64,000 nucleotides of DNA, taken from Phoronis australis (Eukaryota; Animalia; Phoronida). The translations under genes were made by a program, and so were the position numbers. A model generated the notes under the pieces. The model was not told the origin of the DNA and ran no database searches. It was given only the letters and a program-made list of their open reading frames with translations. The stretch lies in NCBI GenBank assembly GCA_002633005.1, contig NMRA01000683.1, positions 142,070 to 206,069 of the forward strand, given 5' to 3'. Of the stretch, positions 2,515 through 62,449 are shown piece after piece (within the stretch, counting starts at the first letter, position 1; every line of letters begins with the position of its first letter).

Positions 2515-2662
2515 CAAACCCTGTGGAGGCAAACCGAGATTCCGTTGCCGCAATCGCATACACGGGGTCGCTGTCAGACTTGTACGATGCGCGAAAGACC
2601 GTCGGAGATACATTCCGAAGATGATCCCATACCCGGATGGCTGTATTTGCGAAAAACGTTGA
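2515..2662 (+). CDS. Terminal coding exon of paralog A of the cationic cystine-knot-like secreted protein (upstream exons outside window)
   Basis: Phase-2 acceptor ttctatctttacag|c. It reads KPCGGKPRFRCRNRIHGVAVRLVRCAKDRRRYIPKMIPYPDGCICEKR*. It aligns without gaps to exon 49518-49674, and AATAAA follows at ~2784. Confidence 0.82.
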
Positions 2663-4557
2663 CTAAATGCTAGGGAATTTGAATTATGAGGATCGCTATG
2701 GCTTGCTTCAGATCGCTGTCTCGTCAATAAGTTAAAATTACAGTTTGATGTACTGAGATTAAAGAGAAGCAATTAAATTTAAAAATAAAGCAAAATAAGC
2801 GCACTATAGATGTTTTACGAATACATTGGATGAGTTACGTAATTTTTTGCACGAAATAGTCGAGACATTCGACAAACACACTGTGAAATAGAAAATACAA
2901 AGACAATTAGCCAGTGCAATGTTTCTATTTGCCTTGGTTTGTTGTTACTTGAGGTCATTTATGTTAAACGTCAAATGACAAGATTTTTAGAGACACCAAA
3001 ATCCTCAAGATCAGTCTGATACAGTAGGGACACGTCTGCTTTGTTTTGCTTCCGCTTAATCAACGCTGAACTCTTCAAGGTAGATCACAATTCTCAAGTA
3101 AAATATTACCATTATCGCAAAAAGCTGACACCAAACAACGATAGACGGAGTCAAGAAACGCAGACAGCAGACGAACGTTTTGCTAAAAATAGGATCGATT
3201 ATGGTTTTCAGTTTTCTTGAGATATCAAAGTTCTGAGCATAAATGTATACTGCACAATTATGGCAAAACGTTTTTCGCTTGATTTGAAACGGGTTTTGGC
3301 AGAGTTTTGATGGATACGTTATCGATGTAATTCACCTATTTCTGAAGGCCCAGATCAAATACAGCAGCCCTTTCACCGTGACCATACGTAGGAATTTTCA
3401 TCGGTAAATTTCTTGCCCTTAGTTTTCGGAACTTGCACATGATAATTTTTTCCATCAAAACACTGCACACGATTCCTGAACTGCAGCTCTACCGTGAATG
3501 CATTTGTGATATACTTTTCTGTATTACACTACATGTATGTGTTTTATGGCAATTCTCATGGCCTTACACAAACTCTATGGAATAAATGTTATCACTGTAA
3601 GAACTGCGGGCACGGTGCTTCACATAATGTCGCAGTAACTCGTGTGCAGACACACCCATCAATACTTGCATGAAAACACAAACGTTAAACATCACAAAAC
3701 AGCCAACAACCTTAAGTTTTGTTGTTTGCTATCCCTTATTTTACGATTTTAGTCTATTTTAACTGTTTGGATTAGAAAATAGGAGGCACTTCGAGAGCCA
3801 GCGCAAAATGTTGAATATTTTCAAGAAACGCGTATGTTTTTAAAAATCGTCAAAATTAATATTTATTTTTGACACTTGAACTGAACAAAAATCGTGCGCA
3901 GCATGCTAGTTTCCAGCGACAGTTGATAATAGGTTATTTTTATGACTAGAGTCTTGTGGTACAACAAAATGTAAGAGAATAGTTAAATAAAGGCACATGG
4001 ATAACATCAGCCCATGGGAGCCGAGAGCAGTTCAAATTCAAGACTCGTGCGTGATAAGCCAATATAGAGGCTGCTAATAACTATAACCTACGCATAAGAA
4101 ATTAGGGACCAGGCCAAAAGTAAAAAGCTGGTATATGGTAGAAGAGGCCATTTACTCACATAAATGTATTGAACGAAAGAAACACCATTTATGTTCGACA
4201 CCTGGACTGAACAAAAATCATGCGTCGCAACTCGTTTCCAGTGATGAAAAGGAGACCGCAAGTTGGCGAAAATACATGTACAGTGTAGCTTCATTTATAG
4301 CTGGCAGACTATCAGGCGTCAAGTGAAAGCACGTGGTCCGAGAGGAATTTAAAGGGAACATTGACGGGTGTCGAACGGATTTAGAGAGATTAATTCGACG
4401 CTACTCTCTGGAAATTACCGAATGCCCAAAAGACCGCGCTGCAAATTGAGGGTGTTAAAGCTCTATCTGGCACACTACTGTGCGAAGCTCATACATTTAT
4501 TTTGGCTATTTGACTAAATTGGCAATGCATTCCACCCGGTAGCTACTGGCTGCAAGC

Positions 4558-14455: not shown

Positions 14456-15754
14456 CGAAGGTCGTTCAATAAGTTCTCGGCCTCACCAAGAAAACAGAGA
14501 AGCAGGTTAAGTTTTTTCACCATAGTAAAATTTCATCTTTTAAAACAGCACTGCGTTCATGTTGAATTAGTACGGTCAACCGCCGCTGGGTGTCGCTGCT
14601 TCAAAAAGCAGAAGACAACACCTTTAGCAACATGGAGATAACGGAGACGAAAGCCGTCATGACGTATTTGGGTAAAAAAGGATGAAACCAAAAGATATTC
14701 ATGAAGAGATGCGAAAAACACTCGGAGCAGACTCCCCGAACTACTCCACTGTAAAAAAGTGGTCAGCTTGTTTCAAGAGGGTTAGAAAAATCGTTGAAGA
14801 TGAACCTCGTCCAGGACGTCTCAGATTATCGACCTCCAGTGAAAATGTGCAGAAAATTCATGCTGTGTTATGAAAGACAGGCGAATGACTATTCAACATT
14901 TGGCAAACACTGTTGGCATCAGCAATGGGTCCGTCTCTAACATTTTGAGTGAAGATTTGGGCATGAGGAAGCTGAGTGCACGATGAGTGCCAAGAATGTT
15001 AACTCAAGATCAGAAAATGACCAGAATGCAAATTTCAAAGGAACTTCTAGGAACATTCCAAGCAGATCCAGCCAAATTTTCCAGAAGACTTGTAACCCAG
15101 GATGAGACATGGGTCCACCACTTTGACCTGGAATCAAAACAACAAAGTAAACAATGGAAGCATGTGGGTTCCCCAAGCCCGAGAAAGTTCAAGTTGGAGG
15201 CCTCTGCCAGCAAAGTTATGGCATTTGAGTTCTGGGACAGCGAAGGTACAGTGTATTCAGATGATCGACTACTTGCGACGAGGACACACTGCTACTGGGA
15301 ATTACTATGCATCACTTTTGGAAAAACTAAAAAAAGCAAACAAGGAAAAGAAACGCGGGAGGTTTCGGGATGGAGTGCTGTTGCTTCCAGAAAACGCACC
15401 TGCCCAAACTACCCAAGTTGCGGTGACTGAAGCAACTAGATGTGGCTTTGAAATCCTTCTGCACCCCGCCTATTCTCCAGACCTGGCCCCATCTGATTTG
15501 ATTTGTTTCCACATTTGAAGGCCAACATGCTGCGTGGACGCCAGTATATGAGCGATGGTGACGTCATGAGTGCAGTGGAGAAGTATTCTGAGGGGCTCGA
15601 CAAAAGTTTCTTTTACGAAGGCATTGCAAAACTGAAGCACAGATGGAAAAAATGCTTTGATGTAACGGGAGATTATATTGAAAAATAAAAGTCAAAATTA
15701 GTTGCTATCGCGTTGTTTTCTGGGTGAGGCCGATAACTTATTCAACGACCCTCG
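14456..15754 (+). mobile_element. Full-length mariner element with disrupted transposase (~14632-15688)
   Basis: TIRs cgaaggtcgttcaataagttctcggcctcacc / ggtgaggccgataacttattcaacgaccctcg with TA TSD. Motifs (W)VPRML, LVTQDETWVHHFD and HPAYSPDLAPSD are present, with frameshifts and stops. Confidence 0.95.
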
Positions 15755-30429: not shown

Positions 30430-31185
30430 TTGAGGGGCAGTGCCGCTGAATTGCTTGAATCTGATTTGTCTGTAAACGAATTGCTTGGTAAGTTAAAGTC
30501 TAGATACGGTGATGTGTTACCTGTTGGAAAAATTGTTGAAAAATTCTACAGTTCTAGACAGGATAAAAATGAAAGCGTTACCGAATGGGCTGCGCGCTTA
30601 GAGAAATTAGTAGTTCAAAAGAAAATGTCCAAATCATGCTCTATTCCGAAAGAGGCGCTGCCAGCTGTGCTAAAATCACATTTTGTGTCTGATTTGCTGT
30701 CGAATGACGTCAGCGTTGGTCGAAAGCATTTTGTGGAACGCAATAGTGAGGAATCATTTGACGAGCTACTGATTTGCGCCCGTCGTTTAGACACTGAGTT
30801 CAGCAGAAAATCGCAGTCACATCACTCTCTTGATAGTGGTGATAAAACTGGTAAAATGGTCACTATGATAGATGCTTTGGCTAAAAGAATAGAGAAACTT
30901 GAAGGTAGTTTCACTCGAAATAGGTCCAATGTAGTTTTCAACGCGAACTCTAAGTTCCGCGGACAACCCTATGGTAATGTGAACTGGCAACGTTCAGAAC
31001 AACAAGGTATTGGCCAGTCTACTGATGTGCGGGCTGACAACTCTTTACCCAGATTTGACGGCGTTTGTTTCCGGTGGCATAAATACGGTCATAGGGTTGC
31101 CAATTGCACGGTTGCTTTAAACTTCAATCGGTCGTCGACGGGGGGGGGGGCTTCCGACCGAACGCATGGAAAGCCCCCTCAGTAG
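30430..31185 (+). pseudogene. gag: Gypsy gag (N-truncated capsid + degenerate CCHC knuckle)
   Basis: FYSSRQDKNESVTEWAARLE (MHR-like); CFRWHKYGHRVANC. Confidence 0.85.
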
Positions 31186-34100
31186 GCTTAGTAGGGGAGT
31201 CCTTTGAAAAGGAATTTATGATTGCAAATGTGAGATGTATATGTTTACTCGATACAGGTTCTAGAGTAAGTACGATCTCCGAGAGCTTGTGTCAGCATAT
31301 TGGTTTGTCTGTGCTGCCTATTTCAGATATTACTGGACCTTTGTGTGTTGAGTGCGCTAACGGAAAAGTTTTGCCTGACAAGGGTTATGTTAGTGTCACT
31401 GTTGGAGTACCCGATACCGATGAGTCAATTGATGTTTTGTTTTTGGTTGTTCCAAACAATTCTTATAATTTCAGTGTTAATGTTATAGTGGGTACTAATG
31501 CTTTGCGTGTTTTGATCGATCTCGTTGATAATGACGATCGCTCGGACTGGTTGCTGTTGTTGAAAAATGTTATGTTTAATCGTGAAACCTCTCTTTCAGG
31601 CGTTGTTAAGACTGACATACCTGTTACCATTCCGTCTGGAATGTCCCATCGATGCTTGTATTTGTGTTAACCCATGTACATCTTGTAGTTTACAGGTTGT
31701 CACCGAAGAGTATGGTTCACTGTCACTTCCTAGTAACTTGCAGGTGTGGCCCACATTGCATGAGATTAACCCTGGGGATCATATGATTCAGCTGAGAATT
31801 CTGAGGAGTTCATAATAAGCCCAGATTTAAGTATTGAGCAGCGCAGCCGAGCCGAATGATTTGGATCTTGGTCATGTTACTCAGGCTCAGCATAAGATAC
31901 ATTGACAAGGGATGCTCCTTTTAAACACCGACATCGCTCTATTCCTCCTAACATGTTGGATGAAGTTAGAGCTCACTTAAAGGATATGTTGCAACTGGGG
32001 GTTATCAGACCGTCCACTAGTAAATATGCTTCTAGTATTGTCTTAGTACGTAAGAAGTCTGGAGAGTTGCGATTTTGCTTAGATTTTCGTAAATTGAACG
32101 AGATCACGGTAAAGGATGCTTATGCTTTGCCTAGTGCGACTGAAAATTTGCATACGCTCCATGGTTCTCAATATTTTGCAACTCTTGACATGAAATCTGC
32201 TTATTTGCTAGTAGATATAGCAGAGGAAGACAAGCATATCGCGGCATTCACTGTAGGTCCACTCGGAGTGCAATAGACTTCAGTTTGACTTAACCAATGC
32301 TCATGCAACGTTTCAACGAGTGATGGAGATGTGTATGGGGGACTTGTATTTGTCTGAGTGTTTGATATTGTTGGATGATATTTTGGTGTTTAGTGATACA
32401 TTTGAGAATCATCTAACCCGATTGAGAAATGTGTTTCAACGCGTATGTGAGTTTGGTATGAAACTTAAACCGTCAAAATGTGAGTTCTTTAAGCAGCGAA
32501 CTGTGTATTTGGGTCACGTGATTTCTCAACAACGGGTCGAATGTGATCCCGATGAGATAGAGGTTGTGTTGGATTGGCCTAATCCAAAGTGTGTGAAAGA
32601 CTTGCAAAGTTTTTTAGTTTTCGTTGGGTTTTATTCAAGACATTGCATCAATTGCTCAGCCTCTTCATGCACTTACAAAGGGAGTAACGGGTCGTAAACG
32701 TAATTCTTCTGATACCTCAAATGGACTGTTTGTTTGGGGTGATAAAGAAGAGTATGCTTTTGAAGAACTTAAACTCAGGTGCACGAGTAGCCCTGTACTG
32801 GCATTTGCGGATTTTACGCAGCCATTTTCTGTGACGCCAGCATGACGTTGTTAGGTGCGGTATTATATCAGGAGTCGGGGGGATTGAATAGACCCATTGC
32901 CTTTGCGAGTCGTTGTTTGAGTGAAGCCGAGAAACGTTATCCTGTACATAAACTTGAGTTTCTGGCTCTTAAGTGGTCCATAACGTCTAAGTTTCACGAT
33001 TACCTATACGGCGGTTTGCCGTTTGTAGTGTACACTGACAATAACCCTGTTACATATGCATTGTCTACAGCTACTCTGGATACAGGCTCTCAGAGGTGGG
33101 TTTCTGAGTAAGCGAATTATAATTTTCAGATTGTGTACAAGACTGGTAAGTCGAACTTAGACGCTGACGAGCTGTCAAGAATAGTGTGGCCTGATCACGG
33201 CCAGGCTTTGCTTTGTGGTGTTACGACACGTAGTGGGTTGGACTTTTCGTCGTCATTCCCTACTCTAACAAACGCCGAATTAGTGAATTTACAACGTAAT
33301 GATATTATTCTTGGTGGGGTGATGGAATGCTTGCGAGCAAAACGTAAGCCTGATGACACCGCAAATAGCGGTGTACGGAAATATTTGAAGTATTGGAGTG
33401 ATCTGTACTTAGATCGGGAATGCTGTTCATAAACAGGGTCTCTTCAGTTGATAATGAAGTTGTTAGTATGTTAGTTGTGCCACAGTCGCTACGAAGTGAG
33501 ATTATGGTGTCTCTGCGCACGATGCAGCTGGGCACCAAGGGTATGAGAGAAAATTTTCTTTGATTAGCAATCGCTACTTTTGGGTAGGCATGCAAAAAGA
33601 TGTGGCAGACTATTGCAAATCATGTGCGAGGTGTCAAATTTCTAAGGGTCCATACAAGAAACCGAGGACTACCATGAGTCACTTGACTGCATGTAGACCC
33701 AATAAAGTGTTAGTCGTTGATTTTACTGTTCTAGAGCCGTACAGTGACGGTAGGGAAAACGTCTTCTTGGTGATGACTGACGTATTCACGAAGTTTACGC
33801 AGGTTGTTGTGACACGCAATCAAACTGCCCTAACTGTTGCCAAGGCTCTGACTGAGCAATGGCTCAATAAGTTCGGTATTCCGGACAGGATTCATCATAT
33901 AGCGATCAGGGTCGCAATTTTGAAAGCGATTTGGTTAAACAGTTGTGCAAATTATATGACATTCAGAAATCCCGTACAACCCCATATCATCCTGAGGGAA
34001 ATTCACAGTGTGAGCGTTTTAATCGCACATTGCATAATCTGTTGAAAACTTTGCCAATTGATCACAAGCGTAAATGGCCGCAGTTTGTGCATGATCTGGT

Positions 34101-34559
34101 GATGTCGTATAATTCTACTCCACACAGCACTACTAAGTACTCTCCGTTTTTCTTGTTCTTTGGCAGGGAACCGAAATTTCCTTTGGATTTTCCCCTGCGG
34201 TTTGATGCAGCAAATCCGGCATACTGTTGCACAGATGAGTATGTAAAGTTAGAGCAGATAAAATGAAAGACACTTGGCAGCGTGCTCGGTATTTTACTGA
34301 CACTTCGAATGATAGAAATAAAGCTAGAAATGATACACGTGCGTTCGCCCAATCACTTCCGGTTGGTGCAACGGTATTTCTGAGAGAACTCAGTATCATA
34401 GGGAGGAATAAAATTCAGAATGCATTTGGTTCAGTTCCTTATTGTATTGTCTCTCGGAGAAATAATGTGTATTCTGTGCGGGCGGCAGATGGTGCCGGAC
34501 CGATTAAAACTGTAAATAGGTCGGACATCTTGAATGGTAGGGACTTGGTAGGTCTCTAG
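31104..34559 (+). pseudogene. pol: Gypsy pol fragments (protease, RT, RNase H, integrase)
   Basis: [68 protein letters not shown]; many frameshifts. Confidence 0.93.
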
Positions 34560-35249
34560 TATTTGGAGTTTTGCTGCTGTTGAGAGCGCGCCAGGCGTTG
34601 TCGTGCTGAAAGTGGAATGTGCGTTGTGATGTCTGTAGCCAGCGAGGAGTCTGAATGATTTCCATTTCACTGCGTTTTGTTTTCATATTGTATGTTAATG
34701 ATGTCGGGACGACATTTTTTGTTAGTGGGGAGATTGTGACGGGACGTTCGTAACTTTACGCTTATTGTTATTCTTATTTATTTGCAAATGTTCAGTTATT
34801 CCTATGCTAATGTCTTTGTTGCGTCTTAGTGCGCCTTTGTTACGTGGGCATGCGGGGCGACTGTATGTGTCGGGCACTTCGCTAGCGACAGGCTTAGGAG
34901 AAGGGTGTTCCCTTCCTTTGCTTACATGAAATTGATCGTTATCATGTATAACTGAACTGAACGTATGCCTGATGAGGTGAAATACACATTTTTGATGCTC
35001 AGTGGAGACTTGCTCTGTTACACTAGAGAGGCGCTATGAACGTACACTGACAGGGGAACGCATGGATATTTACGAAAACCGTTTGGATGACGTGTCATGG
35101 TTGTTAGTGCGCTAACTGCACAATAATGGAAACGACTGACGCTTGCGTCTGCTGTCACGAAATTCTGCAAGTAAAACGCCTGTTTGGAGAAGCGCAGGTG
35201 TTTCTCACGGACCATCCTGATTTTTTGGGCGGCGAAAGCAAAGAAATCA

Positions 35250-37200
35250 ATAAATGTACAAGTTTACAAAGCCTCAAAGATTTCACGACAGATATTTTGC
35301 CAAGAGGAGTTAGAATTCTCCTGTTCCACGAATTTATACTATTTTGTCCTCAAGTTTTTCTTCATAACTTTAGTGAAAACATCCGAGAAAGGTCTAAACT
35401 AAATGCAACTCCCGGTGTTGTAAAAGGTTTTCTGCTCCATTTTAAGTTTCTCTCGGGACACAAGCGTCTGTCGCTAAACTTCATAGGCATTCAAGCCCGA
35501 AAACATGGAATTGATGAAGTAAATTAAGAGTATTTTTCAGAGATTCCCTAGAACCATGGAGTATAATTTCGGTATTATCGACATATTGGATTATTTTATG
35601 AGATCCGCCACCTACCTTGATTCCTTTAATTACAAAATTTTGCCTATAGTAAACAAGATACTCATAATCACCGCATACATGGTGAACAAGTAATGAGAAA
35701 TTGGAATCCTCTGCCACCACGAAAAATTTCAAATTTGTCTGAAGGCAAAGTGTGTTGGATCACAGAAAGCCGAGATTACGTATTGAGTAGACAAATTCAC
35801 AAAAAAAATATTTTCCAAAATTGAAAAATAGGCACGATATATACAAATTTCCAGTACACAGAATCAACGCCTTTTCAAAATAAATCTACCAACGTTAATA
35901 GCCAAGTAATATTTTCGTGTTCAGTATGTTAAATTAATCATAAATGTTTCTAATATATCTGCTCTTGAGAAATCTCTTGATTTCCATGTATGAGGTGACC
36001 AGTTACCAATTTCAGGCGCTGCGCAAAGCATCTAGACAAAATTTGATAGCTGTTGTTGCAGAGTGAAATAGGAAATCAGTTGCTGATATAGTATCTACAT
36101 TTGTTACCTTTTGGTAAGGGCGAAATTATAACATAATTTTGAGTGGGAGGTAAACCTCCATCAACATTCATGTAACTATTGTTAAGCGAATGAGTCAGAA
36201 AAGGGAAAATGTCTTGACAGAAAATCTTATAAAACTTAATTGAAAAGCCCTCGGATCCTGGTAAATTGTCATGCTTCATATTTTTATCACAACTGAAGCC
36301 TCCGTAAAAAATATTGGCCCGTAGAGATTGGATCTATTTACATTTTCAGAAAGTGACTTTGGGTTTGTTTAAAAGGTAGCTGGGCTTTGAGATTGCGCGT
36401 GGATGGAGAGAAAGTGATCAAATCCAGTTAATGATTAATTATGTGATAACCACTAATTAAAATGAGTGGAACATGTTGTTAACTAAGTAATCTAACCATG
36501 ACGAATAGCAACTACGCGAGCACCCTCAACTAACTATAAATAATAAGCTACCCAAGCTTAAGGACTCGACACTTGTTGGATGACAGTCATGTTGGTGAAT
36601 TTTTGAACTACAATGCACTGTACTGCGACAGTGTACTTACTGTTCACAGACCCTTCGTGACACAACCCAACGACACGCGTAGGCAGTATCCTACTACCCA
36701 CGATCCAAGTGACAAGCTCTTAGTTAACTTCCTGTTCGTTAAACCCTTGCCCTTGCCAAGATCCTCTTTAGAATCTTCTGAGAGATGGCTCTGCTGTACA
36801 ATTTCTTCTGTACAATGTAGCAAATTATCTATTCTCAACTACTAAATCTCACGTAAGTATTTTGAAAATGTCTGGCCAAATTATAATAATGTACTAATTT
36901 AATGATTGCCTAATAAAACCACGTGATCTTATCCAATCATTTCATTGGCTGTTACTATTTGCTCTTTAGAGTGCCTTGACCCCAGAACCAAAATGATGAA
37001 CATCATCTAAAAATAGATCTTGACGTCAGAATACTAGTGAATGATGGTTTAAGAGTACATAGGCACACATTTTGGGCAACTGAAATGAAACTTTCTCTAC
37101 TAATAACTTAATTAATATTTATTCTGACAGACATTACTCAGTTTTGATATTTCATTTTCATTAATAACAGTTCCTACGCCCATACCTTCTAAAAACCATA
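35250..37200 (-). mobile_element. Degraded L1/Tx1-clade LINE RT fragment, split by a solo LTR
   Basis: LPGSEGFSIKFYKIF..IISPLPKGNK (RT N-terminal part) and IKGIKVGGGSHKIIQYVDNT (YADD-like). Ends are approximate. Confidence 0.8.
36344..37129 (-). mobile_element. Solo LTR, second copy of the 8763-9661 family
   Basis: Colinear with 8763-9661; ends tttcaga...tctgaca; flanks tacat/gacat. Confidence 0.82.
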
Positions 37201-45070: not shown

Positions 45071-45942
45071 TCGCATTTCCAGCGATGTAAGCAAGTTAAG
45101 TAACTCACAAAATACAACCGGATCAAAATATTCCAAGTTGACCATGCATCGATTAAATATTTACGTCCGAGTATGTATTGAGGTGTAATCACTCATTTAA
45201 GCACGCCCGGTTTTAAAGTTTGGCACGGGTTAACGCGGCAACATCCCCTTTCAGGAAAACATTACATCCGAATTGGGTCTGGTTCTTTTTGAGCAACCGT
45301 CAGGGCATCGTCATTCCTGGTATTACCAGGCCGTCTGATCTTGGGAACATAGAGTTGTGTATATAGATCCCCCCCACGCAATGCTGGCAATGGGCCTGAC
45401 CGAGTGTTTAATAGATTTCGAATCAGTTACAGAATTAAGTCATCGAAGAGTTTTGAACAATCATGATCCTGTTCAAAGCTTTTCTCTCGGATTCCCGAAC
45501 ACTAAATATCGCACGCCTTGAGAAGTACATGTAAATACGACGTTTTTAAATACACTGTATGTCGTTTCTCATTACTTAGTTGCAAACAATTAGAAATAAA
45601 TTATGCAATTAGTGCCGCAATGTCCCGTATCACAATATAGCTTTACCTACAAGAGCATCAAAACCAACAGCGACCTGAGAAAACCATAGTTGGCTAACCA
45701 TTAGCCAACTGCCTGTGACTTGTTTAATGACTTATTTGGCAACAACTTAGGATGAGTGTGAAATTGTTTAAACCCCCAAATGCTTTGGTGTGGAATTCAT
45801 TATCAACAATTTAACAGTACATAAGTGCGTCCTTATGCATAGGCAAACTTTTTGTTACGATTCATGGGCTTCCTAGTCCCTGTGGAAAGGGTAGGCAAGT
45901 CTCTTTACGTCGTGATCTTGATCACGCCACGCCAACAAACTC

Positions 45943-46100
45943 GGAATTTTCCACGCCTCATTTTTAAAGCTGACAATGAACAAGGCGTGTTTTCGCAATG
46001 AATTGTATTCTTTCCCACGACGTGGCAATTTTGCCGAGACTGTTTTCACAGCCGACGATTACCTATAAAAACCCTGTATAAGCAGTAGGTGCACACAGTT
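45943..46100 (+). promoter_or_regulatory. Core promoter of secreted protein gene: kB-like site, TATA box, initiator
   Basis: GGAATTTTCC at 45943-45952, TATAAAA at 46064-46070, acagtt Inr-like ~30 nt downstream, and caacATG at 46135. Confidence 0.6.
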
Positions 46101-46134
46101 GACAACAACCCCTTGTTGTGAATACCTGAGCAAC

Positions 46135-46146
46135 ATGAAGCGTTTG
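46135..46146 (+). CDS. Exon 1 (MKRL) of secreted cationic cystine-knot-like prepropeptide
   Basis: caacATG aag cgt ttg|gtaag, phase 0; it completes the signal peptide begun in exon 2. Confidence 0.78.
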
Positions 46147-46858
46147 GTAAGATTAGCTGGCTGCTTAAAGTCATTAGTGAAGATTTTGAGAGTGCAGTGC
46201 AACCGTTTTTGTAATGCCATCAACATTTTGTTTTTAAGAAAATATCTTAATTGGCGTAGGTGGTCATTTAGTAAAGGTTCCGTTTTTATAGACAGTTTCT
46301 GCCTTCATGTTTGTGTTTTGTTATTGAGTGATTTGTAAGAAATTTTATTTATGCCTACTGGGAGTTATCAGTTTCACGTTAAAATGTGAAAATATACCGG
46401 AACACAGAGCTAATCACCCTGTAAACGTAGACAGTTTTAAAGAGATCGCTCGGTGTTTTAAACTAAGTTGATGTCTCTCTAATAGTTAGTGACATTCCAA
46501 CTTCTTCGTCTGTGTTCTCGTGCAGATTAGACAGACAAAATAAAATTGTCTCTCTCTCTTTACCAAGACCTACCTAGTGATAAATTGAACACCACAGTAA
46601 TGTTTTAATGAGTAGGCTAGTTTTTCCAATCTAAGTTGCCTCTCAAACCAAATGTTAAAGAGCAGAGCCCAAATTCATGAAAATTCAAGTTTGCCATCTG
46701 TTTCACCATCAGCTGTGATTTTCAACTAAGTCACAAAAACAAAATTACCTGCAATTAACGAGACTCAAGCCCAAACCACTTCCCAACCTATTTTTCTTGT
46801 TAAGGGATGTAAACCTATCTGTACATTCATTTCCGTAATATCAGTCCCCTACATTTAG

Positions 46859-47190
46859 GTTCTAGCATGTGTGTTCCTCGCCGTGTGCGGGACACTGGTG
46901 TTTGCAGTGGATGACAACCTCGAGGAAGAAATCGAGTACACGGACGACAACTCCGTCGACGAAAAAGAGCTCACAGACGACAATTCGATAGAGGAAAAAG
47001 AATTCACAGACGAAACCGACGGTGATGAAGCGGAACAGCAAGTGGACGAAAAGGAAGAAGAGCCTGATTTGGAGGTGGAATCTAAAGGCGTCCGCTGCCG
47101 CACGAGAAGGATCACTATTCGGAGGTTCAACTGTTACGTAATTCGCGGCCGACCTATCCGTGGTAGAATTTGCACTCGTCTTACCAATGG
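46859..47190 (+). CDS. Exon 2: signal peptide, acidic propiece, first part of Arg/Cys-rich domain
   Basis: Acceptor cctacatttag|gtt. Reads VLACVFLAVCGTLVFA-VDDNLEEE...ESKG-VRCRTRRITIRRFNCYVIRGRPIRGRICTRLTNG. Donor gg|gtaagt, phase 2. Confidence 0.88.
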
Positions 47191-49517
47191 GTAAGTACGT
47201 TCGTATTTCTTTCGTCATGCTCATGTTGCAGTTTTGTAAAATGATGGAAATCCAAGGACCTTCAAATCTTATAGCTTTTTCTGATGATTTAAAAGCTAAT
47301 GTTTACAACGCTAACATTTCACAGAAACTTTAGAACAAATCACTTTAGTTCAAAATGACGTATTCACGAAAAAGTTGAAGAATAACAATATGGGACGGTG
47401 GTGTACCTCGAGGTACATAAGTTAATAAGTCCACGAATCAAAGATTGGATAGATTTGAAATAACCTCAAGCGTATACCTAAAAAAGGTCTAAAGCCACTG
47501 TTCGGGCCTGTAAGTCCCTCAAAATGAGGCGAGTCCTAGTAGAAATAATGGCGGTTAATTACCGGCGGACAACTGGGGCTGGGGGTATATAGCCCTCCTT
47601 TTTTCAGTGCTGCATCGCCCAGCTATTAAGAAAGTATTTGGAGTTGCTTTGAGTAGAGTCCACTCTTCTGGCTTCTGTTGTTTTACTTTAAAGATTTTGC
47701 TTCAAATACTCGTGACCATCAGACAAATGGGAATTGTCAAAATTCTGTTTCGCAACGGCATAGTTTAGTCAAAATTTCTCGTCTTCAGAGGACACGAGCC
47801 TTTGGAGTCGTGTATTCACTCTGGGACCGAGATAGTCGTGAATACGTGACTTTGGGAAGAAGATTTCAATCCATTTTCGGTCATTTTAGAACCCGGAAAT
47901 TTATTCAGAACCAAAACAATGGCTTCGTTGAGTTTCTTCATTAGTGAAAAACCCACTGAGTGTACTTTCTGGAACGTATGTATTTTTGTCATGTTCTGAG
48001 CTTTTCTTGGACCAGTTTGTGACTTAGACGAGAGCAGCCAGTAAAACTGTGGCCTTAGCACAAGAATTTTAAAAGTAAAGTAGAAGCGTTAGTAAACTGA
48101 GAAGTAACCCAACACCGGCTAATGAAGTTGGCACCTCATTTCAGTTCTCTCCTTGAATTGAGCAGTCTACTGAGATGTCCCTCCTTTTCTGATCTTCGTG
48201 TCGCATAGACTATTTCCAACGACGTCGACACTCGGATCCATCAGGCGACGCGCAATTGCAAGATTATTGCTTTAAAATGCCGAGTTTTCGCGTACCAAGT
48301 GATATACGAATAAGACCACTGTGAAAGTACCTGTACCGTTCTTGATGCACGTGAAAATTTGACTTAAAACATGGTCACGTGACAAAAATAAAGACACAGG
48401 AGTAAGAAGCATATTTTTAGAATCCTCAATCTTTTTACTTTCAGCAAGTATATAATTTAATGGTTAAAAAAACGTTAGTTCATTTGAGCTCCAACTGTTT
48501 TGATTTCTGGTCTCTCCCTCACAATGCATTTCGACGTCTATCCGCGCAGTCTGTTCTCCACCTGTGTTACCCGACTGGAATATTGTGGATATTTGTCTTG
48601 CGAATGGTTTGGTGACAATAAACCGAAACGTCGATTGATATAATGCATTTTTACATATGCGCTGATTTTGCAGTTCGTTCCCAATTTTTGGCATAAAACA
48701 AATGTAAAAGATAACTGGTCGTTCACTTTTGTAATTTTATTAGCGGTTACCGGTATGTGGACACCGATAATGTAAACCACAATACTCCTGATGGTTGATA
48801 CTCTAAATACGGTTTGCGTATCTTTTAACATACGGAAATTTCAGAGGAACGAAACGTCAGTGGGTCAAATGATAAAACAAATATTGACCAATCCCTTAGG
48901 CGTATGAGATCACGTAGACCTCAGTAGGATAACTTTGCTCTATCTTGGCTCATGCCTGATATGACCTTCGATATAGGTTCGGTGACATGATACCATGGTA
49001 TCATGTCACCGTCACGGTCGAGATCGGTCCTTTTGTACATCATCATTTTTAGTACATTGGATTAAAGTGAACCTCAGGATTATACTGAACCAGTGACGTG
49101 AAAATGATATAGGAACACAAAATCCCATTGTACCAGAATACATTTTGCAAGAGTGTCTTCAAAGGCTAGAGAAAGGGCCATCTACTGATCAGATCACTAC
49201 TTTGCTGTTACGGTGTGACGGACAAGTATCGGTTGCAAAACAATGCATGAAATTACAAGTACATTTCTCAGCAAACAAATTGTGGTAGCAACACTTTTTC
49301 TACTAGACTTAACACGGTTGTGTGGTTTAAAAAACTTAATGATGCGATTTGTGAAGGAAAGCGATTATTTAGTTTACCGTAGACGCGGTTAATCTTTTCA
49401 GTCCAAGACGCGGCACAGTGCGTGACACGTATTACACATGTACTGTATGTCTAAATCGTTCGTCAACCAGGGTAACAAATACAACATGACTATACCTCAT
49501 TTTTTTCTTTTTTACAG

Positions 49518-49674
49518 CAAAAGCTGTGGAATCAACCCACTGTACCGATGCCGCACTCTGTTAAGGGGGTTCGCCACCAGACGTGTACAATGCTTGAGAA
49601 AAGGTTGCAGATCCATTACTGCGAGAATCCCGATTCCGGTCGGCTGTGCGTGCCGAAGATTCTTCAAAGGCTAG
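49518..49674 (+). CDS. Exon 3 (terminal) of secreted cationic cystine-knot-like prepropeptide
   Basis: Phase-2 acceptor ttttttcttttttacag|c. Reads KSCGINPLYRCRTLLRGFATRRVQCLRKGCRSITARIPIPVGCACRRFFKG*. AATAAA at 49778. Confidence 0.85.
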
Positions 49675-51183
49675 GGAAGTTAGAATTATGAGAATCACCA
49701 TGGCTTGCTTCAGATCGTTGTCACTTCAATAAGTTTATTTTAGTTGCCAGTTGGATGTTCTGAGATTAAAGAGAAGCAATAAAATATGATATCAAAAGAA
49801 AATAAAGTCACTTTTGATTTTTTAAGAATGCATGTGCTAAGTTACGTAAGTATCTTCATCAAGTAATGGAGACATTTGATTCGTCGACAAACACGCTGAA
49901 AAATTGAAAACGCAAAGACAATTAGACAATACGAATGTTTCCATTTGTTTTGGTTTGTTTTTACATGAAGTCATTTATATTAAACGTACCCGTGGTGGTC
50001 ATATGACGAGATTTTTAGAGACGCCAAAATCATCAATATCACTGTCTGATACAGTAGGGACACATATGTTTTGTTTCGCTTCCATTGAACCAACCCTAGA
50101 CACTTCGAAGTCGATTTCAAATCCCAAGTAAAATATTGCTTTTATCACAAAAACCCGACACCAAACAACGATAGAGGGATTCAAGAAACGCAAACAGCAG
50201 ACAATCGTTTTGCTAAAAAAAACATCGATTTTAGGTTTCAATTTTCCAGACACATCTTAGTTTTGAGTATAAATGTATTGCGCAATTATGGCAACACGTT
50301 TTTCGCTTGATTTGAAATGGGTTTTGGCAGGGTTTTGATGGGGACGTTGTCGATGTAATTCACATATTTCTGAACACCCAGATTACATATAGCATCCCGA
50401 TCACTGTGACCATGCGCAGCAATGTATATCGGTAAATTTTGGCCCTTAGTTTTTAGAAGTGAGAATTTTTTTTCCATTAAAACACTGTACACGATCGTGA
50501 AATACAGTTCTTCCGACCTACTCTTCTGTATTACACTACATGTAAGTATTTCATGGCAACTCTCATGCCCTTATACAAACATTATGAAATAAATGTTATC
50601 ACTGCATGACCTGCGGTCACGGTGCTTCACATAATGTGGCAGTAACTCGTATGCAGCTATACAACTATACTTCCATGAAAACACAAACGTTAAACGTCAG
50701 AAAACAGCCAACAATCCTACGTTTTGATGTTCATTAGCCCTTATTTTACGATTTTAGAATAAACAATTGTTTGGAATAGAAACTGTGAGCTACTTCAGGA
50801 TTCATCACACAATGTTGATTTTCAACAAACACTTATATTTTTGAATATGCATGTTAGACGATTTGAAAATCGTCAAAATTAATACTTATGCTTGACACTT
50901 GGACTAAACAAAAGTCGTGGGTCGCTTGCTTGTTTCCGGAGATGGAACTGAGACCATAGGTGATAGCAGGCTATCCATTATGACTAAACTAGTGGTACAA
51001 CACAATGTAAGAGAATAGATAAATAATAATGAAATCATATTATCTTTGGAAAGATAGCTAATAAAAAGTTCAAAGCAGAGGAACGAGAAAACCATAAGAT
51101 AAGGGGTGGAATGGGGCTAAATGTTTGAGAGAATTCGCACGTCATGTTACATGATCAACGAATTATGCAGTGGAACAAGTTGT

Positions 51184-52429
51184 AACTAGAAAGATTATTG
51201 TCACGGCGTGAGAATAACGGACTCTGCGCGTGCGAATCACTGGAATTATTATGGGAAGTTAAGGACAGCAGCCCATTTATCAATATGAAAAGGAATTCTT
51301 GAAAATTGTAGGAGATATTACATATTAATTTTTTGATGACCTTTCCACCAATTGACCTCTTCCGGTGCATTATGAGACACGATGAAGGAGTAATTGTTAA
51401 CTCGATTAAAAGTGTGGTTAATGCTAATAATCACAGATGTTTTACTTTAAGCACTTGAGAATACAAGATGAATGAAGTGGTCAAACTTTCAGAAGAAAAA
51501 TGCACCTAATGACCCCATGGGTGCATCAAATGACCTGAAAATTTAGAATTCAAACTCAATCGCACTTAGTAAACAGATATGTAATTTTGAAGTCTCTAGG
51601 TCAAAATTTTAGTTTGCACTCAATGACCTTTGATCTATTTTTTCTGATTGGTTAAGCCTATTGCGAAGTAAAGTAGGGTATTCAATTGGCATGTTGACTT
51701 ACAGCAGTGCGCTGAATTTGAAAAGAATTCCTTGAAAAACGTAAGAGATATAACAATTTAAACGTTACATGACCTTTCCACTAATTGACCCTATCCGGTG
51801 CATTATAAGCGTCTTTAGGAGAATTACTGCAAAGCCCATCAAAAATGTGTTTAATGCTGAGAATCACAGCTGTCTAACGGTTGACGCATCAAAATACTTC
51901 CTGATTGAAAGGGTCAAATTTTCAGAAAGAAAAATGCACCCAATGACCCCATGTTTGCACTAAATGACCTTAAACTTTGGATTCCGATTTGATTTACCTG
52001 TGGCAATCAGACCTGTCAATTTGAAGTGTCTAGCTCAAAATTTTAGTTTGCACCTAATGACCTTCGACCTATTTCACCTGATTGGATGACCCGATTACTT
52101 AGAAAAGTAATTTTTTAAATTGTCATGTTCACTTATACCTGTGCACCGAATTTGAAAAAGATAGCTTTAAAACTGAATTAAGAGTAGCATTTTGAAAATT
52201 ATATGACCTTTGCACCAAACGACCTCTTCCGGTGCAATATGGAATATGATTACATAACTAATCAAAATTTATATACTGTCATATGCTAAATTTAAAGACC
52301 GTACCTGCACCCAATGTGGAGTTATTAAGTCTCAAAGTTGGTCGGAAGAAGAATAAGAATAAGAAGAAGAATACAATTGAAGAAAACCAGGAACAACAAT
52401 ACTCTGCGTTTACACGCGCAGAGTAATAA
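51184..52429 (-). mobile_element. HINE/DINE-1-like (Helentron-associated) non-autonomous element, copy 1
   Basis: 12-bp subTIRs actctgcgcgtg (51221) / cacgcgcagagt (52413). Terminal hairpin ttattgtcacggcgtgagaataa next to a CTAGTT end (- strand). Short IR beside the other subTIR, an AAG/AAT microsatellite, and ~433-bp internal repeats (51336, 51769, 52203). Confidence 0.8.
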
Positions 52430-52548
52430 TACCAAAAAACTCCTAAGTGCACGTGACAAACATCAACCTATGGGAGCCTAGAGAAGACCAAATTCAAGAC
52501 CCGTTGGCGGCAAGCCAATAGAGAGAACGGTAATAACTATAGCCTTCA

Positions 52549-53829
52549 AACTAGAAAGATTATTGTCACGGCGTGACATTAACGGACTCTGCGCGTGCGT
52601 ATTACTAGAATTATTATGGGAAGTTACTGACAGCAACCCGTTTACCAATATGAAAAGGGATTCTTTAAAATTGTAGGAAAAATTACATATTAATTTTTTG
52701 ATGACCTTTCCACTAATGGACCTCTTCCGGTGCATTATGAGCGCCGATGAGGGAGTAATTGTTAACTCGATTAAAACTGTGGTTAATGCTAATAATCACA
52801 GATGTTTTACTTTAAGCATTTCAGAATACAAGATGAATGAAATGGTCAAACTTTCAGAAGAAAAGTGCATTTAATGACCCCATGGGTGCACCAAATGACC
52901 TGAAAATTTAGAATTCAAACTCAATCGCATTTAGTAAACAGATACGTAATTCTGAAGTCTCTAGCTCAAAATTTTAGTTTGCACTCAATGACCTTTGACC
53001 TATTTTTCTGATTGGTTAGGCTTATTGCGAAGTAAAGTAGGGCATTCAATTGGTATTTTGACTTACACCAGTATGCTGAAATTGAAAAGAATTCCTTGAA
53101 AAACGTAAGACATATAACATTTTGAACGTTACATGACCTTTGCACTAATTGACCTTATCCGTTGCATTTTAAGCATCTTTAGGAGAATTATTGCAAAGCC
53201 CATGGAAAATGTGTTTGACGCTGAGAATCACAGTTGTCTAACGGTTGACACATCAGAATACTTGCTGATTAAAAAGGTCAAATATTCAGAAGAAAATGCA
53301 CCTAATGACCCCATGTTAGCACTAAATGATCTGAAACTTTGGATTCCGATTTGGTTTACCTCTGGCAATCAGACCCGGCAATTTGAAGTGTCTAGCTCAA
53401 AATTTTAGTTTGCACCTAATGACCTTTGACCAATTTCACCTGATTGGATGACCCGATTACTTAGAAAAGTAATTTTTTAAATTTTCATGTTGACTTGTAC
53501 CTGTGCATCGTATTTGAAAGAGATAGCTTTGAAACTGAAGGAGTAGCATTTTGAAAATTATATGACCTTTGCACCAAACGACCTCTTCCGGTGCAATATG
53601 GAATATGATTATATAACCAATAAAAATTTATATACTGTCAAAAGTCATATGCTGAATTTAAAGACCGTACCTACACCAAGAATAAGAAGAATAAGAAGAA
53701 TAAAATTGAAGAAAACCCAGGAACAACAGTACTCTGCGCTTACACGCGCAGAGTAATAACAAGAATAAGAATAAGAATAAGAATAAGAATAAAATTGAAG
53801 AAACAACAGTACTACGCGCAGAGTAATAA
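52549..53829 (-). mobile_element. HINE/DINE-1-like element, copy 2, with duplicated terminus
   Basis: Closely similar to 51184-52429. The terminus acgcgcagagtaataa occurs twice (53744, 53814), separated by (AAGAAT)n. Confidence 0.8.
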
Positions 53830-57415: not shown

Positions 57416-57575
57416 CTAAAGTTCACTAAAGTACTCCTCAGGAGTGTGGAAAGTGATGCCAACTTTCTCGGCGAACAATTTGTCCGAGTTGCTAAGATCT
57501 CCGGGTCTCCCTGCGGCGTCTCCAACATACACCGCAGTGGACGGGTCAATGGTCTTGAACTGATTCAGTCTGCAG
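57416..57575 (-). CDS. Terminal exon of GMC-PNK3P gene: HAD motif IV of polynucleotide 3'-phosphatase-like domain
   Basis: Phase-2 acceptor attcttacag|c. Reads CRLNQFKTIDPSTAVYVGDAAGRPGDLSNSDKLFAEKVGITFHTPEEYFSEL*. Confidence 0.88.
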
Positions 57576-59170
57576 CTGTAAGAATATTTTGTGTATGTTA
57601 ATGGTGTGTAGCACTTTATCGACTGGTCTAGGTATTTCTAGGTATCAAACAAAATATCTGAAAAACTATATATTTTAATACAAAAAGTATACAGTTTCCG
57701 AAAATAGAAAGCCTGTGGAACTTGCTTTTTGAATTTACATGTACATCAATCTGTCATTACTTGGGTCACGTGAATACAAACAACATTATCAACTACAATA
57801 TCAAAACTCATTTGACTTAAATGTTTCTGATAAAATCTCAAAACGGTGTGACAGTTTTCTTAATTGTCATTTCGTTTTCGTTTTATACATCTGTTGATTT
57901 TTTTTCTTAACCATCTGTAAAAGTCATAATCGGAATATCCCATCTTGCAAAAGTGAAGAATTTTAAAGCCAATCAAATACCGTGTTAGAGAACAGCGTAA
58001 ATACGATCAGCTATTTCTGTGATATGATGTTTCGACATTTGCCAAATTTGGACATTTTCTATTGCCCTACATAATCGTAAGCCACGTAGGACATTTATTT
58101 TCTATTTACATAACTGTGGATGTAGGTATGGAATTCAACCATGTAAAAGTACACATTTTCTGAAAGTAGAAAACTTTTAGAATTTGATATTTTACGTAAT
58201 GTTAATATGCTCTTAATTGGACCGCATCTTTTTACTGATATTTACAAAAGGTGAAAATACTTTTATATCAAAAAACCCATAACGAACAAAGAAACTTCCG
58301 TCAATATAAATATTCGATGTGAAATCACCAAAACACCAATACAGCTATCTAAACAGTCTTACCGTTTTCGTCTTATTTTGATTTCATTTTGCTTCCTAAA
58401 CATTTTGAATGTCCCAATTTTGATGATCTTTCAAGGCAAAATATAATGCATAAAAATAATTTGTAACAGAATTTTAGAGAACAGTGCAGAATCCGATTTG
58501 AATTCGATCAGTCATCTTTGAGATATGATGTACGACGTTAGCCACTTTATCTAATGCCTCACGTGACCTTAATATTCAATGGATGAAACGGGATATTTAA
58601 AGGTTCATAGTCTCATTAAATTGTGAATATGGAAGTGAAATGCCAATCGCAATCAACCACGGTCCTCCTCCATCATCAGAGATCCAGTTACTATTACACT
58701 GTACAATCTTGCGAATTTCATTATCAAATAACGATTGCGTGATAATTGGAATTGCTAGTTTTCAATATGTGCACAGTTAGTTATTTTTAACGTGTATCAG
58801 TTGAAGTGTTTTCTATAACAAAGCAATTTTTACAAATTGTTTCTTTTTTGGATTTAGCTGTACACACAGTTCTCCAGGACGTCATTAGGTGGTGCTTGAT
58901 ACAAATTCAAATATTCGTGGTTTTAAAGAGACAGGGCATCTGTAAGTTAACTATGAACTATTCTTCCAGACGATCCTCAATAAGATGAGACATATTTAAG
59001 CACACTCGCTGTGTAGCATTATCATGAAAGTGGTTGCAAAATGCTATACTGTACAGTAGTTATCAGTATAACATATTCCATGTGTTTGTTAGTCAAAATT
59101 TAACGGAAACGCCGTCCAGTAGACAGCAAATGGGCCAAAAAAGGCCTGCACAAGATAACATTTTCCATGC

Positions 59171-59322
59171 CTGTAATATGTCCACATCCCGGTGTCAGGC
59201 TTACGAAGATCGTTGTACTCTGTGGCGCCTAGGACAAACATGGGTACACCCAGTTCATTCGTGATGGCTTCAATCTTTGACATCCACTCGTCTTTATTCT
59301 GAGAGCCGCTCCCGATTCCGGC
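59171..59322 (-). CDS. Exon of PNK 3'-phosphatase-like domain (motif III RKP)
   Basis: Phase-0 acceptor ttgttgcag|gcc. Reads AGIGSGSQNKDEWMSKIEAITNELGVPMFVLGATEYNDLRKPDTGMWTYY. The donor appears to be GC (ag|gcatgg), phase 2. Confidence 0.83.
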
Positions 59323-59617
59323 CTGCAACAAATACGTAAGAGAATGATCAACAACCTACAAATCTTTGAACAATCTCCGGCTTGAATTTACTGCAAAATC
59401 GTTTAATTCCGTACTTAGGCGTTACATGGTGGTACTGTGCGTAATAGCGAAGGAAAGGCCCGAAAGGCATTTAATTCAGCCATTGAATGCGACCCCTACG
59501 TGAATCGTTTATAGCAAAAAACCCATCCGGAAATGGAATACGCACATTTGAAACGGCCACGTAGGGGACTCTTAAACTTAAAAAAATCCGTTTGGCTTCG
59601 GCCTAATATAGATATAT

Positions 59618-59620
<3 letters not shown>

Positions 59621-59654
<34 letters not shown>
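59621..59654. repeat. (GT)17 microsatellite in intron
   Basis: Direct read. Confidence 0.95.
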
Positions 59655-59656
<2 letters not shown>

Positions 59657-59931
59657 CATTGAAAAGTAAATGTACAGTGTTTTATTTACTATTTCAACTG
59701 CCATCTGAAGAAAGACATTTATGTAGACAATACGAAAGTTTGTTGAACAAGCTATCTAATGCCAAGAACAGCTTACTTACAATGAAACATGTATAAAAGA
59801 AGGTCTGCTACCCAAATACAAAGATTTTTGTATATCTATATGCATATATGGTTCTAACAATCATATTCTTTTGCAAATTACAGAGTCGCTTGAATATAGC
59901 GTGGAAATGAACGTACGTCTGAATGTTTTAC

Positions 59932-60478
59932 CTGGTTGCTCATAATAACGTTACTGATGCCTCTCTTGTGATTGTCTTGTATTTTGAGTTTGACATTTTC
60001 GGATGTGAATGTCCAGTCTTTTTCATCGACAGGGAAATCTCTTCCACTTTTCGTCTTACTAATGGTATTGTCCAGATCAAAAGACACCACGTGCTCATTT
60101 GAATAAATCCGCCTATTCGTTTCGTAGTAGAGAAGACCGTTGGAGAGCTGTGTCCACCAGCCAGGGAGGGTGTTGAGCGGGGGATATTCACGAGAGAAGC
60201 GACGACCTGAGCTCCAAAACACAGTCTCGAGGAGAAATCCGGCCAGCTCCTCATACCAGTCAGTGTCTGGGTTGGCAATCATCGAGCCCGTGCGGAAGAA
60301 TGCCGAAGATCCCGGGTGGCGGGCGACCACTTTTTTTGTCGCGTAGTAGTCCACCAATGGAAGTGCTAGGTCAGGCTCTTTGTAAATCCACTCACGTTTG
60401 GAGTCATCCACATATACAAGTATGGAGCATATCTCCGGCTGACAGTTCAGGGTGAAGCAGTGCTCAGACCCACGAACC
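59932..60478 (-). CDS. Exon: end of unknown domain + start of PNK 3'-phosphatase (HAD motifs I, II)
   Basis: Phase-2 acceptor cataacag|g. Contains VVSFDLDNTISKTKSGRDFPVDEKDW..VIMSNQ|gtaaa, phase 0. Confidence 0.87.
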
Positions 60479-60975
60479 CTGTTATGTACGCACAAGTTGG
60501 TATTAAGCAACAGCTGGCAGTCAGAGACACAGTAACATTCTTAGCTATTTGGCATTATCTTTTAATTATTGGAATACAGTGGCTTATTGAATATAATTTT
60601 CTCTTTTTCTTGGCAAATCACATGCGGAACGTTAGAAAGTTTAGTTAGCAATAGCTTGCAGGAGGGGAAATAACGTGCCCAAAGTATTGAACGCACGAAA
60701 CTTTGTTTCTCAAAGCACACTCTTGACTGAAAATCGTGTTTAATTCCTGTTTTCTACATCAGGTGTCACAAGCTTTTCAAGATTATGCAACGAGCATCTC
60801 AAAACACAACAGATGAAAGTATGTGCATGATATGTTCGTGTCTACTAAAACAGCATACGATTTGTCCACTTAGTTTAACTCCCAAATGACGATCTACCTG
60901 AGTTTGTCCGAACTATCTTATTATACCATGCTTTTCCATATTTAGCCTGCTCATGTAAAAGAGCTGCGAACATAC

Positions 60976-61927
60976 CTGCCGCCTTCTCCCTTCCATGAAC
61001 CAGCTTTCGCCCATAATGCATCGGGATCGACACCTGAGAAAGCTTGGCACCACACGGCAAAAACGTAGGGGGATACCTTATGCTTTGGAGTCGGCTCTTT
61101 TGGATCGGGAGTTGCTTCTGGTCTGTTGAACTTGGGGTAACCTTCAGCATTGCAACCGTCTTTTGGATCAGTTCCCAATGTAGCCACAGCTGCTAAGTCT
61201 GCAATTTCACGCTCATTGGTGCCTTCGTCGCAAACAAAGGACCATTTAACAATCAAAGCTGAAGTATCTTTCCCTGTTGAAATCCATTCAGAGGACACCG
61301 ACACATTCATGCAATTTGAAGCTGATTTCACAGAGCCCATGTCTATAGTTGCATGACCAGGAGGTAGTTCGGACTCGAAGGCAGTTTTTTCTCTTGGAAT
61401 TGTTAAGTCTTTACGAACTGCCACGTTTACGTATTTCAGATATTGGAACTTGAGCATGTCTGCCAGTTTTTCACCCATAGCGAAAAGAGTAGCGGATGGA
61501 TTTCCGTCGGTTTGTGTTGCGAAGGCTGAGGCATCACATACTCTGAGATTAGAAACTCCTCTCACTTGTAGAAACTCATCAGCACAGTCTGGCATTTTGC
61601 ATGTACCGACAGGGTGAAGTGCAGACACCAGCATTCCACGCAACCATGTGTTCAGCTTGTCGTCCGTATCTATATCCATTCCCGGCTCAATTTCCCCCAA
61701 AATCAGGTCTTTCAACTCTTTCCTAACATTTTTTCCAAAGAACATACTGCGCAACACGTGAATTTGATCTCGATAAAACTTAGAGACCTTCTTGAACGAT
61801 TCTGTTGGTACTCCATCATTAGTGTATTCCCAACCATACTCTACCTCCGGCTTGTCGAATATGTTTGAAGTAAGTGCTTTGACATGGCCGCGGTACTCAG
61901 GCCACTGATCGATGACACGAATAGTAC
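60976..61927 (-). CDS. Exon: GMC oxidoreductase C-terminal domain + start of unknown domain
   Basis: Phase-1 acceptor gctttag|gt. Contains PEYRGHV and ALHPVGTCKM..LQVRGVSNLRVCDASAF..GNPSATLFAMGEKLADML. Donor ggcag|gtatgt, phase 2. Confidence 0.88.
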
Positions 61928-62449
61928 CTAAAGCAGTCAAAGTAATGTTTTTTCTCAGAGGTATACATCATGATTAAATCACTTAAATCACAATGTGAAG
62001 CAGCACTGTCTTTCATTTTGCTATCAAAATCAATTTCCAATAAATATATGCATATACATATTTAAAGATGTATTTTTATGCTTCTAATCATGCTTATGTT
62101 AAGAAAGAACTACGTTAATTAAAATGCAGTTGTATTTACTGAAAACTTGTAAATGTGAAAACCAAAAATCCTGCAAATAGGTAACCCGTGCAGTAATTAC
62201 GTATATCGGTGGCTCACTGACATAGCCCGTAGCATGTAGTGTTATTCCCCAGCACCATGTCATGAAATTTAATCACTGGACGAGGCTAGGTGAATTGAGG
62301 TGGATGATTTTCGTCGAAAAACTCGTTCTTAAACACATTTGGAAATTTCTAACCTACGTCATATTCAAGTTGTCACTGCAAGTTGTGTTTCTAACTAGAT
62401 TGGCCAATTATTACAAAGATAAGGACTTAAGCTATCAGTTCCACTTTAC

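Follow-up and report, generated by a model that had tools for sequence, protein, structure and literature searches.

What kind of protein is made from a gene whose small product joins a strongly acidic stretch to an arginine-rich and cysteine-rich domain? The question is raised by a three-exon gene in a stretch of 64,000 nt of the Phoronis australis contig NMRA01000683.1, here called the window; all coordinates below are window positions. The gene is real, spliced and well expressed. Its family, with rapid coding divergence, comprises at least three expressed genes, a finding that goes beyond the initial annotation of this locus. As the best reading, tentatively held, the product may be a cationic defence protein that is masked by its propiece, has a growth-factor-type cystine knot and binds anionic microbial surfaces.

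Gene structure and expression

The spliced coding sequence (CDS) of 501 nt (exons 46135-46146, 46859-47190 and 49518-49674) specifies 166 residues. Exon coordinates, GT-AG intron ends, phases (0 and 2) and protein length of the initial annotation were all reproduced from the sequence. Four runs of the same species (X1-X4) were mapped on 45900-50000; X1-X3 are raw RNA runs, X4 consists of contigs that we presume to derive from RNA. The check proposed by the initial annotation, RNA reads across both introns, gave junction reads in all three raw RNA runs (Table 1), and because reads span both introns, an artefactual or chance joining of exons is ruled out as the origin of the open reading frame. 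Reads are stranded and lie mostly within exons, and the ends of many molecules cluster at 46103-46106 (5' end) and 49750-49776 (3' side). Depth in exon bins ranges from 32 to 591 across the raw RNA runs, and the three runs yield 57, 101 and 183 mapped reads per million, an upper bound that includes reads from repeats in intron 2. This intron carries dispersed-repeat fragments near 47590-47620 and 48350-48640, with repeat-type reads from both strands. In about half of the X1 and X2 reads the signal peptide is altered at two residues (C8Y and V9L; 46869-46871); together with two silent changes in exon 3, this probably represents a second allele.

Precursor layout and charge

Residues 1-20 comprise a basic start, a hydrophobic core and V-x-A at 18-20; judged by eye, they form a predicted signal peptide, and the protein is likely secreted. 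Residues 21-81 contain 12 D and 18 E against 4 K, residues 82-166 contain 21 R (25%), 3 K and nine cysteines and are free of D and E, exactly as counted in the initial annotation, from which the border at 81/82 is taken as a choice and not as an observed cleavage. Calculated net charges at pH 7.5 are -26.5 for the propiece, +23.2 for the basic domain and -2.8 for the pro-form, and the proposed charge balance holds in a near-neutral precursor. The cysteines of the basic domain are located at positions 3, 15, 28, 37, 45, 59, 64, 77 and 79 (domain numbering, used for all cysteines of this protein below), and include the C-x8-C-x7-C spacing and the terminal PxGCxC described earlier.

Paralogs and coding divergence

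A tblastn search shows exon 3 to be present twice in the window, with the other copy at 2516-2656 (E 2e-6). This copy shares 42% amino-acid identity with the gene, keeps five of the six cysteines (the equivalent of Cys64 is missing) and remains basic with 10 R, 5 K and 3 D/E. It is spliced and expressed in one of the three raw runs (X3 alone, depth about 30), where 13 reads reveal the end of its upstream exon and a retained C-x8-C across the intron; no exon upstream of it was detected within the 64-kb window. Similarity between the two duplicated regions runs on piecewise to about 5650 and 54735, respectively, in self-blastn comparisons. A third member, outside the window, is represented by 7-9 reads in each of the three raw runs and ends in PVGCxC without a terminal Gly. 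The terminal PxGCxC is therefore retained in all three members, and the family size, derived from the window and the RNA reads, is a lower bound. The C-terminal amidation considered in the initial annotation is weakened by these sequences: as both paralogs lack the terminal Gly it is possible for one member only, and as a family trait it is rejected. A remnant of a Penelope-like element with a GIY-YIG domain (PF01541, E 6e-8) lies at 1-860, the expected place of intron 2 of the window paralog, and downstream of the gene, at 51184-53760, stretches of about 0.5-1.2 kb are tandemly duplicated with 70-89% identity.

Between the two copies of exon 3, 51 of 141 coding nt differ, compared with 277 of 1613 aligned positions (16-18%) in the flanks of the duplicated exon (intron, 3' UTR and downstream DNA). 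The coding rate is about twice that of all flanks (Fisher p 4e-7), also with nonsynonymous sites alone (p 7e-7), and a protein identity of 42% stands against flanks that are 82-84% identical, a value flattered by gapped alignment. This pattern would fit fast-changing secreted effectors with fixed cysteines, unlike developmental ligands. Duplication together with a hypervariable mature region is described for antimicrobial peptides and toxins (PMC4558851). Paralogs and rapid coding divergence give independent weight to a role in defence.

Cysteine spacing

In growth-factor-type knots, disulfides I-IV, II-V and III-VI join two pairs of strands, which make up two beta-hairpin fingers (PMC11087794, PMC4079206). 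The knot cysteines of human noggin at 155, 178, 184, 192, 228 and 230 (PMC9034678) leave gaps of 22, 5, 7, 35 and 1 residues. The best six cysteines of the Phoronis domain (3, 28, 37, 45, 77 and 79) leave gaps of 24, 8, 7, 31 and 1, in an order that allows the same three disulfides and ends in CxC. All five gaps are within 4 residues of those of noggin, a fit matched by 0.7% of 50,000 random placements of nine cysteines, and the terminal PxGCxC occurs in 0.07% of shuffles; both tests are post hoc. The strongest beta-strand periodicity falls on the last segment before CxC. From the cysteine spacing, a growth-factor-type knot is predicted, and we consider it fairly probable. The cystine-knot likeness seen in the initial annotation thus stands for the spacing, which fits noggin, and lacks structural support for the fold itself. 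The numerical comparison of spacings covered noggin.

The motif CxGxC between Cys II and Cys III characterizes the branch of TGF-beta, glycoprotein hormones, bursicon and DAN; here both window copies have 8 residues between these cysteines and lack the motif. The noggin branch (noggin-like, trunk and PTTH) is likewise without the CxGxC ring. A conserved Gly is mentioned in a figure legend of PMC4079206. Registered on Cys V, Cys64 stands 12 residues ahead of it, which matches Cys215 and Cys228 in noggin, and the equivalent of Pro223 is kept in both window copies (noggin positions according to PMC4972895). In the same register, Trp217 and Tyr222 of noggin are replaced by Ser and Ile, the equivalent of Cys232 is missing and no cysteine follows Cys VI; furthermore, the Phoronis domain has an extra cysteine in finger 1. 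Canonical noggin possesses an N-terminal clip domain according to PMC9071555, instead of which a low-complexity stretch rich in D and E is found here.

Homology searches

All database searches were made with single exons, so their sensitivity is reduced. Sequence scans of Pfam, NCBIfam and PDB returned compositional or weak unrelated rows only and no knot family; for exon 2, with the acidic N-terminal region, all matches were compositional. Pfam includes a noggin model, and neither the noggin family nor its solved chains were matched by single exons in Pfam or PDB at E up to 10. Likewise, profiles and solved chains of Spaetzle, NGF and IL-17 and the defensin profile gave no match to single exons. 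Word-indexed searches of 5.8 billion proteins found no match, either for exon 2 (near lengths) or for a two-sequence profile of exon 3 (longer and near lengths). With the same exon-3 profile, HMMER found five matches at E up to 0.001 among 1.84 billion representative proteins and no true homologue; all five were discarded as long repeat-containing proteins with many short matching stretches and no cysteine frame. Metagenome contigs contained 94 pattern matches, none of them confirmed. The AlphaFold model of the exon-3 half (pLDDT 53) has no match in the Foldseek PDB set or among 48,161 chains.

The initial annotation did not recognise the combination of features as a named family, which agrees with these results, with no characterised family matched in Pfam, PDB or HMMER searches. 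At the sensitivity used, the family is without match and is not assigned to any named family. Macins were considered; their cysteine pattern presumably differs. Tatritin was rejected as a relative, being described as a 68-aa precursor without propiece and with an inhibitor-type knot (PMC8984021). Full-text literature searches, with most subscription papers outside their scope, found neither an antimicrobial with a growth-factor-type knot nor a family resembling the present one.

A defence protein on a growth-factor fold?

Defensins have six cysteines in about 30-50 residues. With 85 residues, 8-9 cysteines and a charge of about +23, the present domain is far larger and more basic, and it lacks a sequence match and a clear dibasic cut site; membership of the defensins was rejected on its 85 residues, nine cysteines and missing profile match. 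The precursor nevertheless shows the balanced-charge three-part layout of the defensin type (the signal peptide judged by eye), and the family shows duplication and a fast-diverging mature region with fixed cysteines, with a formal excess of dN over dS that is not significant. Signal peptide, anionic propiece, cationic mature part and a near-zero charge of the pro-form are described for precursors of alpha-defensins and frog-skin antimicrobial peptides (PMC7073735), and these, too, arose by gene duplication with diversifying mature regions. In the same source, charge neutralisation by the anionic propiece of alpha-defensins is presented as a proposed model. The MgCRP-I family of Mytilus is, as described in PMC4558851, also a lineage-restricted, duplicated family of cationic, cysteine-rich proteins with pre-pro organisation, and differs by its short six-cysteine peptides with another cysteine pattern.

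A defence protein of this kind would work in five steps. The signal peptide would send the precursor to secretion, and while the protein folds and is stored, the propiece (about -26) would neutralise the basic domain (about +23). Disulfides Cys3-45, Cys28-77 and Cys37-79 would make the knot, and Cys15-59 would staple both fingers, for which the finger-tip disulfide of sclerostin (PMC9104784) serves as model; Cys64, missing in the window paralog, may be free or intermolecular. The domain would then be freed by cleavage around residue 80 or, on release, by altered salt or pH. Rigid and coated with Arg, the freed domain could bind polyanions such as lipopolysaccharide, teichoic acid or anionic lipid, and so kill, clump or mark microbes.

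Several observations weigh against this reading. A clear processing site is missing: the sole furin-type site, RTRR (85-88), follows the first knot cysteine, and among the differences listed for the X4 variant, T86F and R88N abolish it. Furin cleavage at RTRR, within the cysteine frame and altered in X4, is judged unlikely, and a monobasic cut at Lys80 or an uncut precursor are possible alternatives. The knot is backed by no structure, the exon-3 half model being uninformative, and by no family in the Pfam and PDB scans of single exons. Among random placements that have CxC, 1.9% fit the noggin gaps equally well, and 2.0% of shuffles satisfy a loose knot pattern (post hoc); the spacing tests were picked post hoc with several families considered, so the true odds are weaker. 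Regarding divergence, dN (0.53) does not significantly exceed dS (0.40), with pN-pS at or below zero in 21% of bootstraps, and synonymous sites are elevated as well (p 0.03 against flanks); local hypermutation or a bias of the flank alignment could contribute. In frogs, the correlation between propiece and mature charge is reported as weak, and as not significant when pooled (PMC7073735). MgCRP-I, similar in layout and evolution, was without antimicrobial or toxic activity in the assays described (PMC4558851), so that layout and evolution are no guarantee of antimicrobial activity.

The initial annotation regarded the protein as possibly a cytokine-type fold turned effector. The real spliced gene, the charge balance, the missing known family, the fitting cysteine spacing and the fast-diverging paralogs speak for this view; its other parts, the knot itself, the cleavage of the propiece and the activity, are predictions. 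In its widest form, a noggin/IL-17-type knot would have become, in a lineage-specific family, an immune effector that is hyper-cationic and acts directly, is stored behind a charge-matched propiece and diversifies by tandem duplication, a cytokine fold in the role of a defensin; this version we regard as possible, if somewhat doubtful. Growth-factor knots are held distinct from the inhibitor and cyclic knots of toxins and inhibitors, which are not homologous to them (PMC4079206). A growth-factor-type knot as propiece-masked antimicrobial would, if true, cross that divide: a fold of signalling proteins would have become a weapon, and a new, very stable cationic scaffold would be gained. Even if the knot should be wrong, the locus contributes an expressed, fast-evolving and likely secreted family without match in the searches run.

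The defence role may also be correct and the knot a chance likeness, the protein being a cationic defence peptide or toxin, masked by its propiece, on another fold. Charge balance, duplication and rapid divergence are independent of the fold, the family and fold searches (single exons and the exon-3 half model) give the knot no support, and the loose pattern is found in 2% of shuffles. We nevertheless regard this explanation as unlikely in view of the five knot gaps close to those of noggin, Cys64 at the place of noggin Cys215, the kept equivalent of Pro223 in both window copies, and the terminal PxGCxC of all three family members.

As a further candidate function, the protein might cross-link polyanions such as sulfated glycans or phosphoproteins in a structural, adhesive, mucus or gamete-surface role, its acidic segment serving as storage counter-ion or calcium-binding tail and perhaps never cleaved. 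Fast evolution and strong positive charge are also typical of gamete-recognition and adhesive proteins, and both the high, variable expression (57-183 reads per million, the upper bound given above) and the lack of a conserved processing site would suit such a function. The basic domain, however, is without tandem repeats and not rich in Gly or Tyr, but compact with fixed cysteines, and the almost exact balance of charges fits a propiece that masks; we consider this explanation improbable. The tissues of the RNA runs are not given, and the expression level cannot separate a defence from a structural function.

Comparison with signalling proteins

Besides noggin, two groups of signalling proteins share features with the putative defence protein. 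The tail C-x13-C-x17-CxC resembles the spacing of the DAN family. Compared to sclerostin, the II-III gap of 8 residues replaces the CxGxC ring, and with only 7 residues in the III-IV loop there is no long loop 2 for receptor binding. The acidic propiece and the rapid evolution are further differences to sclerostin and SOSTDC1. A knot with a finger-tip disulfide, as described for both (PMC9104784, PMC7473711), would explain the eight cysteines common to both window copies, as far as these were seen. Sclerostin has an Arg/Lys surface that binds polyanions (PMC9104784), to which the Arg-rich domain is comparable.

IL-17 and Spaetzle carry a cysteine-rich C-terminal domain after a pro-region, as found here, and differ by the extreme charge polarity of the Phoronis protein and its missing profile match on single exons. 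The terminal VGCxC resembles IL-17 ends. The six cysteines are compatible with the ancestral T1A knot type of IL-17 as described in PMC11087794.

A diverged signalling protein of the noggin-like, trunk, IL-17 or sclerostin kind, Arg-tethered to heparan sulfate and directed at a receptor or at BMP or Wnt ligands, would accord with the noggin-like cysteine spacing, with noggin-like proteins described as clip-less and variable in length (PMC9071555), with heparin binding through Arg/Lys and a knot plus finger-tip disulfide in sclerostin (PMC9104784) and with the little sequence shared among invertebrate IL-17s (PMC11087794), but is the least likely explanation given no match to a knot family or homologue on single exons, a divergence between paralogs (42% identity against 82-84% in flanks) unlike that of a developmental ligand, a domain with 25% Arg and no acidic residue, and an expression that appears to exceed the cytokine norm.

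Other features of the window

Table 1. Coordinates of the gene, its window paralog and the duplicated segment, with the evidence for each
Feature	Position	Strand	Evidence
TATA box (TATAAAA)	46064..46070	+	sequence; about 40 nt upstream of commonest read 5' ends
Exon 1: 5' UTR and CDS 46135-46146 (signal peptide residues 1-4)	46103..46146	+	read 5' ends 46103, 46106; splice reads
Intron 1, 712 nt, GT-AG, phase 0	46147..46858	+	94/158/273 joint reads in X1/X2/X3
Exon 2: remainder of predicted signal peptide (residues 5-20)	46859..46906	+	translation; signal peptide by eye
Exon 2: acidic propiece (residues 21-81, 30 D/E, net about -26), imperfect internal repeat	46907..47089	+	translation, charge calculation
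Exon 2: start of Arg-rich domain with Cys3, Cys15, Cys28	47090..47190	+	translation
Intron 2, 2327 nt, GT-AG, phase 2	47191..49517	+	54/142/360 joint reads in X1/X2/X3 and one X4 contig
Exon 3 CDS: Cys37, 45, 59, 64, 77, 79, terminal PxGCxC, stop	49518..49674	+	translation, RNA reads
3' UTR with AATAAA at 49778-49783	49675..49796	+	reads and X4 contig reach 49776-49796
Last exon of tandem paralog (CDS 2515-2662)	2515..2790	+	tblastn E 2e-6, alignment, splice reads
Duplicated segment	2164..3990 vs 49171-51026	+	self-blastn, 75% identity

On the minus strand, at 57420-61967 and probably further, a C-terminal domain of GMC oxidoreductases (PF05199, E 7e-18) is present, and about 400 nt downstream of it begins a PNK3P phosphatase domain (PF08645, E 3e-12), the rest of which, judged by eye, seems to lie in frames near 59100-59350 and 57420-57550. 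These frames may belong to one spliced fusion gene or to two neighbours. Frameshifted remains at 7880-10297, 14987-15518 and 30397-34266 are, by eye, what we take to be a non-LTR retrotransposon, a mariner-type transposase and a Gypsy element, respectively. A short frame at 35108-35527 has a cysteine cluster reminiscent of the P2X-like domains that accompany some DNA transposons. Palindromic stretches matching their own opposite strand in self-blastn are located at 48980-49011 (32 nt) and 6395-6568 (about 175 nt).

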